From the IMG/VR virus record IMGVR_UViG_2579779009_000002: DNA of 23,706 nucleotides; one strand, given 5' to 3'. The DNA comes from a virus (Duplodnaviria > Heunggongvirae > Uroviricota > Caudoviricetes). The notes under the pieces are model-generated. The model saw only the letters and a program-made list of their open reading frames with translations. It made no database searches and was not told the origin of the DNA. Shown here piece by piece: positions 7,559 to 11,314 of the stretch. The position numbers and the translations under genes are program-made. Numbering within the stretch: position 1 is the stretch's first letter; every line of letters starts with the position of its first letter.

Positions 7559-7601
7559 TTTACATCAGTAAGATTATTATATACTGTAAATATAAACAGT
7601 G
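7559..7601 (+). promoter_or_regulatory. SOS-regulated promoter: -35 TTTACA, -10 TATACT, overlapping LexA box TACTGTAAATATAAACAGTG (7582-7601)
   Basis: CTGT-N8-ACAG with AT-rich centre matches the LexA operator consensus (TACTGTATATATATACAGTA); lies about 45 nt upstream of the antirepressor-like ORF, as for the 186 tum promoter. Confidence 0.7.
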
Positions 7602-8075: not shown

Positions 8076-8345
8076 GAAACGTTGCTGGCGTCTGAACTTG
8101 CTTCTGGCGTCAGCAAGGTTGAACAACGAGCTATGCGAGGCGTTAGTGTCAATTTGTTACCTTAACCACTATATATGCCAGGAAATTAACAGTTCTTAAG
8201 AAACCGCTTGCATGATCGAGCGCATTGAACTTAAGTTTAAGTAACGAAATCAACAGATGATATTGTTGTCTAAATTTTAAAGATAATCTGTTGAGGTTGT
8301 AGGCGTCGGAGTGTAGACTTCCGCGCTATGTGAAAAGGGGGAGTT

Positions 8346-8561
8346 ATGTCAAGCATCGCCGCATTTAGCCTGGGTAACCCAGTTGAACGTCTGGCAAGGG
8401 TTCTTAAAGAGAACCAGGACAAACTCAATCTTAGTAAAGATGGTTTTGTGTCCGTAGACTTGTCTAACAAAAGAGCAATGGATGCCATCAAGGCACAGAT
8501 GGATAAGCTTGAAGGCATCAAAACGAGCACTGTAAAAGAGAAAACTAATAGAACCAGATAA
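8346..8561 (+). CDS. Hypothetical 71-aa hydrophilic protein, first gene of the accessory two-gene cassette
   Basis: ATG at 8346 preceded by AAGGGGGAG; stop overlaps the next gene's start (TAATG); AT-rich; no recognisable motif. Confidence 0.6.
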   Translation: MSSIAAFSLGNPVERLARVLKENQDKLNLSKDGFVSVDLSNKRAMDAIKAQMDKLEGIKTSTVKEKTNRTR

Positions 8562-9403
8562 TGGCAACATTACTTTTAGCAGTGATTTTGGTTAGTGGTT
8601 TTATTTATGTAAACCTATCACTTTCAACAAGATACCGATATAAGCGTTCCAACGGCTGGGACGCTTATTTTTTTGTGGCTGCCTGGGGTATCGTTTTTTT
8701 TCTCCTTGGCGGTTTTTTCACCTTTATTTTGAACGTCAGCGGAGGGTTTCGTTGGCTGGCTAATGCCTTGAATCTAACACCTGACAGTTTTAATGGCATG
8801 TTGTCTTCATCGAAAGACAAACTTCAAAGAATAAATGAAATCAAACAGATAGCATGGGTTATGATTTCAATTGTCCTCGCTGCGATTTCAGGTTTTGGAA
8901 ATAAGTTACGCACATCACGTGGAGATCGTCGCTGGGATGCCTTAGCTAAAGCTGTGGGTAATAACGCTTTCGAATCATTACTTATGGAAGCGTCCGCAAG
9001 ACAGTTTCCGATCATAGCAACTCTGTCGTCTCGCAAAATCTATGTTGGCCTTGTTACTTGTCCGGCGTTAGAAAACGGGCTTTCAGAGCACCTTGAACTT
9101 CTCCCGATGTTAAGCGGATATCGGGATAAAGATGATCTAACGATTAGTATCACGACTAACTATCACCAACATTATCTTGATAGTGGTGTGATAAGTGGAA
9201 TGTCTCGGCTTAATATCGAAGATTTCCGTGTGCTCATACCAAAAGATGAGGTTGAAACAATTTCGTTTTTTGATACTGAGACATATAACAAATTTAAAGA
9301 AAATGAAGCCAGGGATAGAAAGAACTGTCGAAAGATTGGTAGTAAAAGTGCATCTTCGCGCAGCAAGCGTGCAGCAGATGCTGAGTCAAATGATCGTGCA
9401 TGA
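8561..9403 (+). CDS. Hypothetical 280-aa inner-membrane protein (three predicted TM helices plus about 165-aa C-terminal soluble domain), second gene of the accessory cassette
   Basis: Hydrophobic stretches ATLLLAVILVSGFIYVNL, YFFVAAWGIVFFLLGGFFTFILNV and IAWVMISIVLAAISGFG; Ser/Lys/Arg-rich C-terminal tail; translationally coupled to the upstream small ORF. Confidence 0.7.
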   Translation: MATLLLAVILVSGFIYVNLSLSTRYRYKRSNGWDAYFFVAAWGIVFFLLGGFFTFILNVSGGFRWLANALNLTPDSFNGMLSSSKDKLQRINEIKQIAWVMISIVLAAISGFGNKLRTSRGDRRWDALAKAVGNNAFESLLMEASARQFPIIATLSSRKIYVGLVTCPALENGLSEHLELLPMLSGYRDKDDLTISITTNYHQHYLDSGVISGMSRLNIEDFRVLIPKDEVETISFFDTETYNKFKENEARDRKNCRKIGSKSASSRSKRAADAESNDRA

Positions 9404-9451
9404 CTATGCTGCATGAGATCGCATGATCGTTTGAGGAGCATTTTTGCTGAG

Positions 9452-9476
9452 GCCCGCCAGAACTGGCGGGCTTTTG
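9452..9476 (+). terminator. Rho-independent terminator candidate downstream of the two-gene cassette
   Basis: GCCCGCCA / TGGCGGGC 8-bp stem with 4-nt loop, followed by TTTTG. Confidence 0.5.
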
Positions 9477-9520: not shown

Positions 9521-9539
9521 GGCGTGGCGGGGATACGAG
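9521..9539. other. Candidate cohesive-end (cos) site of a P2/186-type phage
   Basis: GGCGTGGCGGGGATACGAG: the first 13 nt match the 186/P2 cos overhang as I recall it (186 GGCGTGGCGGGGAAAGCAT; P2 GGCGAGGCGGGGAAAGCAC). Position on the cos-proximal side of portal gene Q is as expected. The last 6 nt differ, so this is tentative. Confidence 0.4.
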
Positions 9540-9616: not shown

Positions 9617-11314
9617 ATGCATAGAATTGTTAAAGCTCATCTTGATAACTTCGTGAAAAGTCACGGTATTGAAAATCATCAAGAGGACACGCAGTTCGAG
9701 CTATTTTGTAATAAAGCTTTGCTGTCTTCTCGTATAAGTATGGATTATGAAATTGACGATGTAACAACCGGGGCTGGTGATGATGGCATGGATGGTGTTG
9801 CCATCATAATTGATGAAGAATTGTGTATATCTTCTGAAGATGCTACTTCAATATTTTCCTCATTACGTAAAAATCATGATGTTGATATTGTTTTCATTCA
9901 ATCAAAGCGTAGTGAGTCTTTTGATTTAGGTGATTTTTTAAAGTTTAAAGCTTCCGTTTTTAGATTTATAGAGGATTCTCCTTACTTATGTGTAGATGAA
10001 ATTCAAAAAAATGCAAGGGAAGTTTTTGATGTCATAATAAAAAATGTACCTAAGATAAGAGGTGGGCGACCAACTTTTACTGCTAAATATGTTGCAACTG
10101 GTTTATATAAAAAACCTAAAGAGTTAGAGAATGCTCGGAAGTTATTTGCAAAAGAAATTGACGAGTTGGGATATTTCTGTAATGTTAGCGTTGAGTTTGT
10201 TGATCGTGATGAATTAACACGTACTTGGATTGATACTTATTCAGTTGTCAATGCTGAATTGCCATTATTTAGTAATGCACCACTTCCCAAAATTAATGGT
10301 ATAGAAGAAGCTTATCTTGCTGTCGTTAAAGCAAAGGATTTTGTTGGTAATTTATTGATGACGGACGAGGGGTCTCTCCGTAATCATGTTTTTGTTGAGA
10401 ACGTCCGGGCGTTCTTGGGAATTGATAATCCTGTTAACGCATCGATTGCTGAGACAATTAAAAATAAAGATGCCGCTTCACGATTTCCTGTTTTAAATAA
10501 TGGAATAACAATTGTTAGTCCGGATGTAAAACTTCAAGGGAGTATTTTACATCTAGAAAATTTTCAGATAGTTAATGGCTGTCAGACATCAAATGTGCTT
10601 TACGAATGCCGCGATTCCTTAGATGATACGATGATGGTTAACTTGAAAGTCGTAGAGACATTAAACGAAGATGTTTTTTCAGAATTGGTTCGAGCGACTA
10701 ACAGTCAGACTAAGGTTGATGAGACTCAGTTCTATTCTCTTCGTCCAATAATAAAGAAAGTAGAAGCGTACTTTGATACTTATGAAGGGCAGGATGGTCG
10801 TTTATATTTAGAAAGACGTGAAAGACAATTTATCGGTAGAGATATACCTGCAGTTAGAGTATTTTCAGTTCATATGGCAGCTAAATGTGTAGCAGCTATG
10901 TTCTTCCGTCGGCCAGATCTTTCATATAGATACCCTAAAAAAATGTATGAATTGTTGGCTGAGAAAATATTTTCTAATGATACCAAGGAGATTGTATTTT
11001 ATTCAGCATGTTTAACATTATATAGATTACACCTACTTACTTCTAATGCTGATATTCCACAAAATATCAGGAAGTACAAATGGCATTTAATGGCGGTAGT
11101 TGGTGCTTTAATTGCCGGAAAGGATGTGCCTAATTTTGGCTCTAAGAAAATGGATGCGTATTGTAATAAAATCATCACTGAAATGACAAAGCATGGTGAT
11201 AAAATAAAAGCTACTTTCCAGAAGGCTGTTGATATTGTTTTGTCAATTGATGATATCACTGATGATAGAATGAAAAGGCAAGCTATTTTAGAGGAAATGC
11301 TTGCCAAGATTTAA
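9617..11314 (+). CDS. Large 565-aa accessory protein; candidate AIPR-family abortive-infection protein (tentative)
   Basis: ATG at 9617 with AAAGGGA upstream; very AT-rich (about 30% GC on a hand-counted 60-nt sample, versus about 58% in a late-gene sample). Motifs NNGITIV and QIVNGCQT resemble, from memory, conserved blocks of the AIPR family (PF10592). N-terminal GAGDDGMDGVAIIIDEE...FIQSKRS could be a PD-(D/E)xK-like nuclease signature (speculative). Confidence 0.7.
   Translation: MHRIVKAHLDNFVKSHGIENHQEDTQFELFCNKALLSSRISMDYEIDDVTTGAGDDGMDGVAIIIDEELCISSEDATSIFSSLRKNHDVDIVFIQSKRSESFDLGDFLKFKASVFRFIEDSPYLCVDEIQKNAREVFDVIIKNVPKIRGGRPTFTAKYVATGLYKKPKELENARKLFAKEIDELGYFCNVSVEFVDRDELTRTWIDTYSVVNAELPLFSNAPLPKINGIEEAYLAVVKAKDFVGNLLMTDEGSLRNHVFVENVRAFLGIDNPVNASIAETIKNKDAASRFPVLNNGITIVSPDVKLQGSILHLENFQIVNGCQTSNVLYECRDSLDDTMMVNLKVVETLNEDVFSELVRATNSQTKVDETQFYSLRPIIKKVEAYFDTYEGQDGRLYLERRERQFIGRDIPAVRVFSVHMAAKCVAAMFFRRPDLSYRYPKKMYELLAEKIFSNDTKEIVFYSACLTLYRLHLLTSNADIPQNIRKYKWHLMAVVGALIAGKDVPNFGSKKMDAYCNKIITEMTKHGDKIKATFQKAVDIVLSIDDITDDRMKRQAILEEMLAKI

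Follow-up and report, generated by a model that had tools for sequence, protein, structure and literature searches.

Between a DinI-like gene and the cos site of IMG/VR virus record IMGVR_UViG_2579779009_000002 (Caudoviricetes) lies a cassette of two open reading frames (ORFs), ORF-A and ORF-B, which is best read as a horizontally mobile accessory module, or moron, that a prophage would express for the benefit of its lysogen. The stretch analysed, here called the window, is 23,706 nucleotides (nt) long. As to what the lysogen would gain, the explanation we favour is an autonomous membrane-acting anti-phage module working by abortive infection or by an injection block. It is held tentatively, at a little short of an even chance, because copies of the pair are syntenic on Pseudomonas chromosomes, the surroundings of distant family members show no enrichment in defence genes and no promoter was called upstream of ORF-A. 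The cassette consists of the following parts:

8346 to 8561, plus strand: ORF-A, 71 amino acids (aa), ATG start, small soluble partner
8561 to 9403, plus strand: ORF-B, 280 aa, ATG start, inner-membrane protein
8147 to 8345, plus strand: cassette-specific upstream non-coding region, defined by the end of homology to Escherichia phage 500465-1 at 8146

Both ORFs are real genes and not chance reading frames, as follows from their many homologues and from purifying selection on both. ORF-A has a ratio of nonsynonymous to synonymous substitution rates (dN/dS) of 0.18-0.22 and ORF-B one of about 0.04, with the copy in Klebsiella phage ST15-OXA48phi14.1 and two other enterobacterial genomes as references (Serratia is among the copies compared). 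No support as genes was found for the minus-strand ORFs of the region (86, 73, 70 and 104 aa). A strong Shine-Dalgarno sequence, AAGGGGGAG, precedes ORF-A at 8335-8343, 3 nt before the ATG, and the ORF-A stop codon shares one base with the ORF-B start (TAATG, in ATAATG). Inspection of the sequence revealed no Shine-Dalgarno sequence belonging to ORF-B, which fits translational coupling to ORF-A. The pair (8200-9400) has a GC content of 0.40-0.42, compared with 0.50-0.55 for gpA and 0.55-0.61 for the late and structural genes. An original prediction, made from the sequence alone, had placed the two ORFs and their overlap at these coordinates and had proposed translational coupling, an AT-rich locus in a GC-richer backbone and a location between the replication/SOS genes and cos/portal. 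All of this holds, gpA, the DinI-like gene, cos, AbiU and the portal gene having been confirmed around the pair.

Two peculiarities of the coding region deserve mention. In comparisons with the same relatives (loci L002, L004 and L007; window positions 8346-9400), ORF-A has a synonymous rate dS of about 0.47 and ORF-B one of about 2.0, a roughly four-fold gap that hints at a recombination breakpoint within the cassette or at constraint on the codons of ORF-A. Inside ORF-B, the scan called a terminator-like hairpin at 8640-8678 (a 12-bp stem followed by TTTTTTT) in the codons of the conserved KRSNGWDAYFFV loop; it may be due to chance or be an attenuator.

The mobility of the pair is apparent from a comparison with phage 500465-1, in which the site is empty. 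Backbone identity ends at 8146 and restarts at 9396, and in 500465-1 the two flanks are separated by 7 bp. The cassette is thus a discrete insert of 1,249 bp (8147-9395), of which 199 bp are upstream DNA that belongs to it. Among flank-sharing records from complete E. coli genomes the pair occurs in 52 of 1,277 (about 4 %), which, together with the empty site, refutes the alternative that it forms a conserved core gene set. The locus between gpA and cos, where old and tin lie in P2, is a defence hotspot (Rousset 2022, PMC9122126), and loci L001-L017 of our collection are situated in this P2-type hotspot. Outside this hotspot, an Enterobacter lambdoid prophage has the pair between its tail genes K and I, an Aeromonas prophage directly 5' of its tape-measure gene and an Actinobacillus prophage behind the gene for the large terminase (TerL); in a P2-like prophage of Shewanella it lies at the repressor end. 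In sequenced phages (50,697 records) it is confined to temperate ones, and chromosomal islets of the pair without phage genes also exist.

This distribution also bears on the idea that the pair serves the life cycle of its carrier phage, near cos, through lysis timing, packaging or help with injection. The pair does adjoin cos here and lies within late operons in other phages, and SOS-driven read-through from a LexA-box promoter at about 7560-7600 would be possible. However, such a function is extremely unlikely, given that the pair is missing from about 96 % of the flank-sharing related prophages and from the empty-site phage, that its position differs in every phage type and that the chromosomal islets are devoid of phage genes.

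Moreover, E. coli copies of the pair that are 98.5-99.9 % identical differ in the cargo found across cos:

this window: AbiU (PADLOC)
another near-identical copy: PIN protein
another near-identical copy: 778-aa AAA ATPase
another near-identical copy: P-loop NTPase (KAP-type)
another near-identical copy: hypothetical protein plus TIR
another near-identical copy: 557-aa hypothetical protein
strain TUM1881: none, the pair alone

Further partners across cos can be found in Table S5A of Rousset 2022 (PMC9122126), namely SieB, PIN_12 and DUF262/DUF1524. Since its cargo neighbours are interchangeable and it stands alone in TUM1881, the pair is self-sufficient and needs none of them. A discrete insert with respect to an empty site, AT-rich, endowed with its own upstream flank and present in unrelated phages, it is a prophage moron or hotspot cargo, of which only the promoter is a candidate.

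The family to which the pair belongs is far larger and older than the P2 hotspot. An exhaustive profile search with ORF-B yielded 2,886 representatives at 50 % identity, of which 2,015 match at E <= 1e-10; nearly all are 240-340 aa long and match end to end. (A word-indexed search found just 57 clusters for ORF-B and 29 for ORF-A.) When one genome per species was scanned, 80 loci emerged, in Enterobacterales, Vibrio, Shewanella, Pasteurellaceae, Neisseria, Pseudomonas and Acidobacteria. Nearly all loci have a small ORF of about 53-100 aa that borders on the 5' end of the membrane gene or overlaps it, with gaps of -13 to about +36 nt. The small partners have in common the core [KRD][DNS]G-x-hydrophobic-x-hydrophobic-[ND] and, behind it, an amphipathic helix. 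A hidden Markov model trained on 32 of these small proteins finds the partner immediately before the membrane gene in 82 of 88 loci, which come from Gamma- and Betaproteobacteria and Acidobacteria, 50 of the matched loci lying outside the training set. The pair is therefore an old, obligate two-gene unit. Around 37 distant loci no constant third gene was found, and the top 150 representatives contain no N-terminal fusion of the partner to the membrane protein, so that Rosetta-stone support is not available.

Some genomes harbour two or three diverged copies, such as Photorhabdus akhurstii (L011, L027 and L039) and P. namnaonensis (L010 and L047), with 54 % and 27-31 % identity to ORF-B. In many NCBI records the ORF-A homologues (P0059-P0083) bear the label “multidrug ABC transporter ATPase”, evidently a mis-annotation that has been propagated.

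The strict co-occurrence of a small and a larger gene brings to mind a toxin-antitoxin-like addiction module, in which ORF-B would be a membrane-damaging toxin and ORF-A a labile antidote, the two stabilising the prophage or island that carries them. As in type II systems, the small gene comes first, the stop and start codons overlap (TAATG) and the partner is present in 82 of 88 loci; in addition, the pair moves between mobile elements as an autonomous two-gene unit. However, ORF-A has no recognisable antitoxin DNA-binding fold or family, its model being a helix-hairpin-helix, and neither Pfam nor PADLOC returned a toxin-antitoxin or antitoxin family. We regard this possibility as very unlikely in its own right, and many toxin-antitoxin modules are themselves defensive, so that it overlaps with the anti-phage explanation.

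ORF-A is basic (isoelectric point 9.9) and is modelled as a helix, a beta-hairpin (KDGFVSVDL) and a long helix, with a predicted local distance difference test score (pLDDT) of 71. In ORF-B, hydropathy delimits three transmembrane (TM) segments at about 1-21, 36-58 and 97-113, and the basic loop RYRYKR after TM1 implies an N-out/C-in orientation, which puts a C-terminal domain of about 165 aa in the cytoplasm. The AlphaFold2 model of ORF-B (31-sequence alignment, pLDDT 78) agrees with this topology, and both lines of evidence uphold the earlier proposal of a three-TM membrane protein with a cytoplasmic domain. The model comprises the three TM and two short helices and then a domain made of a helix and a bent beta-sheet (about 136-236); a long helix and a basic, disordered tail make up the C-terminus. 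Conservation is concentrated in two regions. The cytoplasmic loop between TM1 and TM2 carries the motif RYxxKRSxGWDAYF and the invariant residues R29, Y36 and G43. The barrel contains the motifs SRKxYVG and LPxLSGYRDKDxL, and here L155, K159, Y161, G163, G173, S185, G186, R188, L193, Y201, Y205, F222, F237 and Y242 are invariant.

The segment from about 136 to 236 is predicted to be an Sm-like (Hfq/LSm-type) beta-barrel: in the model, an N-terminal helix leads into a beta-sheet of five strands, strongly bent, and the whole can be superposed on Sm proteins. Sequence identity of the domain to Sm, LSm and Hfq proteins and to WYL ligand-sensing domains amounts to 8-20 %. Unlike the Sm/LSm/Hfq proteins, ORF-B is membrane-anchored, and it matches neither the LSM nor the Hfq family of Pfam. 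Three TM helices plus an Sm-like beta domain constitute the core layout of the MscS channel (SCOP/InterPro classification). MscS shares with ORF-B the gross arrangement of an outside N-terminus, three TM helices and a cytoplasmic Sm-class beta domain. It is absent from the top structural matches of ORF-B, and the C-terminal alpha/beta domain of MscS is missing from ORF-B. Membership in the MscS family by sequence can be rejected, there being no match to Pfam MS_channel and an hhalign probability of 0.1 % against E. coli MscS (sequence verified against PDB 6rld).

A set of TM helices joined to a small cytoplasmic beta-barrel is a layout known from membrane effectors, and it counts in favour of a membrane-acting module. 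The scheme we propose would run as follows. ORF-B would oligomerise into a ring by means of its Sm-like cytoplasmic domain, in the manner usual for proteins of this fold, and the ring would place 3 x n TM helices in the membrane. Translational coupling would fix the ratio of ORF-A to ORF-B. ORF-A might then bind the cytoplasmic face, i.e., the Sm-like domain and/or the TM1-TM2 loop, and either keep the assembly inert or provide specificity for the trigger. A component of a superinfecting phage would displace or engage ORF-A or the Sm-like ring, upon which the TM bundle would open and the membrane depolarise, leading to abortive infection. In a close variant, the ORF-A/ORF-B assembly would instead block genome entry.

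A bolder version of this scheme, which we consider decidedly unlikely, would make ORF-B the first of a new class of membrane effectors. An Sm-like ring anchored in the membrane would sense invader nucleic acid or a nucleotide signal directly at the inner membrane and gate its own TM bundle, with ORF-A as plug or adaptor. Were it true, a mechanism of immunity or exclusion based on two genes and unrelated to known systems would be widespread (>2,000 clusters at 50 % identity), and the channel layout of MscS, in which an Sm-like domain is added to three TM helices, would have been put to use independently.

Several exclusion systems block phage entry, among them HK97 gp15, P22 SieA and T4 Imm, and the pair could act likewise, as an inner-membrane complex that stops the translocation of incoming phage DNA while the cell survives. 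Such superinfection exclusion is compatible with the inner-membrane location of ORF-B, its periplasmic N-terminus and its periplasmic loop. It is also consistent with the placement of the pair inside tail or head operons of lambdoid and Pasteurellaceae prophages, and with its combination with SieB in some E. coli hotspots. The Aeromonas copy, upstream of the tape-measure gene, occupies what is presumably the position of HK97 gp15, likewise a prophage moron encoding an inner-membrane protein; gp15, for its part, is a single small protein. Against this, the part of ORF-B that is largest and best conserved faces the cytoplasm and not the periplasm, and a simple entry block would require neither an Sm-like cytoplasmic domain nor a soluble partner. 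Altogether, we judge superinfection exclusion rather unlikely.

Comparison with described systems places the membrane-acting module among known kinds of hotspot cargo, without homology to any of them. Pfam has no family for ORF-A or ORF-B (E <= 1 beyond noise), and a sequence-profile search of the PDB returned nothing for either protein. In PHROGs they correspond to phrog_9843 (ORF-A, 1.4e-36) and phrog_3630 (ORF-B), both of unknown function. Membership among the OLD ATPase-TOPRIM or Tin proteins is rejected, as Pfam and PADLOC give no match and P2 Old and Tin differ in size and composition. The Rst_Hydrolase-3TM system of the P4 hotspot, active against T7 (Rousset 2022, PMC9122126), is likewise a two-gene cos-adjacent cargo whose second protein has three TM helices. 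However, its partner is a 290-aa HAD hydrolase as opposed to the 71-aa ORF-A, which is not an enzyme, its 3TM protein has, as far as can be judged from sequence length, no Sm-like cytoplasmic domain, and hhalign between this protein and the ORF-B family gives a probability of 0.3 %. The AC1 system Rst_2TM_1TM_TIR also resides in P2-like hotspots and presumably employs membrane effectors (Rousset 2022), but it consists of three genes including TIR. There is no TIR inside the ORF-A/ORF-B cassette; the one found near the pair lies across cos and swaps with other cargo, and the hhalign probability is 0.4 % for the 2TM and 0.2 % for the 1TM protein, so that membership is rejected here too.

The functional analogy we propose is lambda RexAB, an abortive-infection system and again a two-gene prophage module, made of a soluble protein (RexA) and a polytopic inner-membrane channel (RexB). 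Pfam and PADLOC reveal no sequence relation to the pair, and the sizes are reversed, with a 71-aa soluble and a 280-aa membrane protein here. RexB is not known to have an Sm-like domain, in contrast to the three TM helices plus Sm-like domain of ORF-B. The pair is thus not homologous to any described system but is of a known kind, two-gene membrane-protein hotspot cargo, and what is new about it is the membrane-anchored Sm-like domain, the conserved small partner and the size of the family.

In the literature, the pair has been recorded without being named. It appears among the P2 hotspot arrangements as “hypothetical + hypothetical” (Rousset 2022, PMC9122126, Table S5A). In DefensePredictor (PMC13092281, Table S5), ORF-B (WP_000212611.1) reaches a mean log-odds of 5.10, above the stringent cut-off of 4, and carries the label “Predicted novel defense gene”. 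In the same work, 42 of 94 cloned predictions protected against phage, a hit rate that provides a rough prior for the pair. The original prediction had called the cassette undescribed and of no recognised family. The second statement is borne out by Pfam and PADLOC, where neither protein has a match; the first stands as far as models in these two collections go and fails in that the pair is catalogued as phrog_9843/phrog_3630 and in the two supplementary tables. Likewise, a discrete cassette does exist in the P2 hotspot, as had been proposed, but the family extends well beyond it to chromosomal copies in Pseudomonas. The suggested anti-phage role gains from the discrete hotspot cassette and from the score of 5.10 given by the machine-learning predictor, while the more specific readings offered with it, a sensor with its effector or a toxin-antitoxin-like pair, remain conjecture.

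A number of observations weigh against the favoured anti-phage explanation. In the Pseudomonas fluorescens group, copies with 24-30 % identity occupy a largely syntenic chromosomal site flanked by genes for an OYE-type oxidoreductase and an outer-membrane beta-barrel protein, and a Neisseria copy adjoins valS. Such placements are more like those of a resident cellular function and weaken the defensive interpretation, even if the Pseudomonas locus could be either that or a chromosomal hotspot. The immediate neighbours of the 37 distant loci show no clear enrichment in defence genes. Among the 5,027 models of PADLOC-DB v2.0.0, ORF-A has 0 matches and the best match of ORF-B is an amino-acid transporter model over the TM helices (E = 0.14). 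Homology to the TM proteins of the systems that Rousset validated or tested (3TM, AC1 2TM + 1TM, gop, RT-nitrilase 1TM, HP+4TM, peptidase+TM and KwaA-like) was rejected by hhalign, with all probabilities <=1.1 %. The pair is not among the cloned systems of Rousset 2022 (PMC9122126, Tables S2A and S2B), nor is the ORF-B protein in the tables of cloned or validated units of DefensePredictor (PMC13092281), a predictor that is partly context-based and hence not fully independent of the hotspot argument. Searches of the literature by accession and keyword found no functional study of any family member. Lastly, a consensus promoter scan did not call a sigma-70 site upstream of ORF-A, and transcription from the LexA-controlled promoter (about 7560-7600) could read through into the pair, so that we can only infer its expression in the uninduced lysogen.

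The same chromosomal copies point to a function in lysogenic conversion or in the cell itself, e.g., envelope or ion homeostasis, or the handling of RNA or nucleotides at the membrane. The syntenic site in the Pseudomonas fluorescens group and the Neisseria pair beside valS argue for it, as do the MscS-like core layout and the great size, age and uniform architecture of the family (2,886 clusters). Weighed as a whole, we think such a function fairly improbable.

The copies at this locus in the Pseudomonas fluorescens group are L054, L055, L063, L066, L070, L072, L074, L075 and L077, and in some species the flanks vary.

If the pair protects against phage, the known defence systems gain a two-gene member that is compact (1.25 kb) and very widespread. 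In its effector, a membrane anchor would be joined to an Sm-like domain, whose fold has hitherto not been linked to membrane-acting immunity, and a function would be assigned to a family of at least 2,000-2,900 clusters that has neither a Pfam entry, an NCBIfam-derived name nor a PADLOC model. If it does not, the syntenic copies in Pseudomonas suggest that phages have taken over a membrane function so far overlooked. The pair is one of many hotspot candidates, but one that is widespread, compact and easy to test.

The upstream region of the cassette offers a candidate promoter, proposed on grounds of conservation:

TTGCAT at 8208-8213, 18-nt spacer, TAAGTT at 8232-8237: candidate promoter, overlapping the palindrome ACTTAAGT

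CTTGC and ACTTAAGT are unchanged in five copies of the cassette, including that of Serratia inhibens (69 % identity). Between 8208 and 8245, the palindrome and tandem TTAAGT repeats are invariant upstream of all close copies, and they could be an operator for some regulator. Further upstream, gpA (Pfam Phage_GPA, 7e-127) is followed by a small phrog_698 ORF and the DinI-like gene. Just 5' of these last two genes, a promoter-like TTTACA...TATACT (7559-7599) is overlapped by a perfect LexA box, CTGTAAATATAAACAG at 7584-7599; together the two genes look like an SOS-controlled operon comparable to tum of phage 186.

Downstream of the pair, the window contains the following features:

9449 to 9476, plus strand: GC-rich hairpin followed by UUUU, fold z = -3.7, likely intrinsic terminator for the pair
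9521 to 9539: 19-mer GGCGTGGCGGGGATACGAG, in the cos-type sequence AAAGCGGGCAGGCGTGGCGGGGATACGAGCGCGCGC
9617 to 11314: AbiU/AIPR gene, 565 aa, beyond cos (PADLOC AbiU 4.4e-112, Pfam AIPR 1.5e-43)
after AbiU, minus strand: portal gene

The hairpin was not called by the consensus scan for terminators and promoters. A terminator had been predicted to follow the genes, and the hairpin at 9449-9476 is indeed there; it belongs, however, to the backbone and not to the cassette, since the segment 9396-9547 (hairpin plus cos) is kept in phages that have no cassette; it is also found in Fels-2, RE2010 and many Klebsiella phages. The cos sequence of the window closely matches the P4 cos region AAAGCGGGCGGGCGAGGCGGGGAAAGCACTGCGCGC present in the cloned inserts of Rousset 2022 (PMC9122126). 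On the virion chromosome the pair comes to lie at the right end (DinI-cos) and AbiU at the left end (cos-portal), and this position on opposite sides of cos indicates that the hotspot amounts to two cargo slots, one per end of the virion DNA. AbiU, with a GC content of 0.31-0.38, is more AT-rich than the pair, which suggests separate acquisitions. In the segment 7400-11500, an Rfam scan gave no match except for a chance microRNA. In Klebsiella phage ST15-OXA48phi14.1, the annotated gp15 (L002, 6195-6404, a “hypothetical protein” of 69 aa) overlaps the conserved segment that holds the terminator and cos and is probably not a gene.

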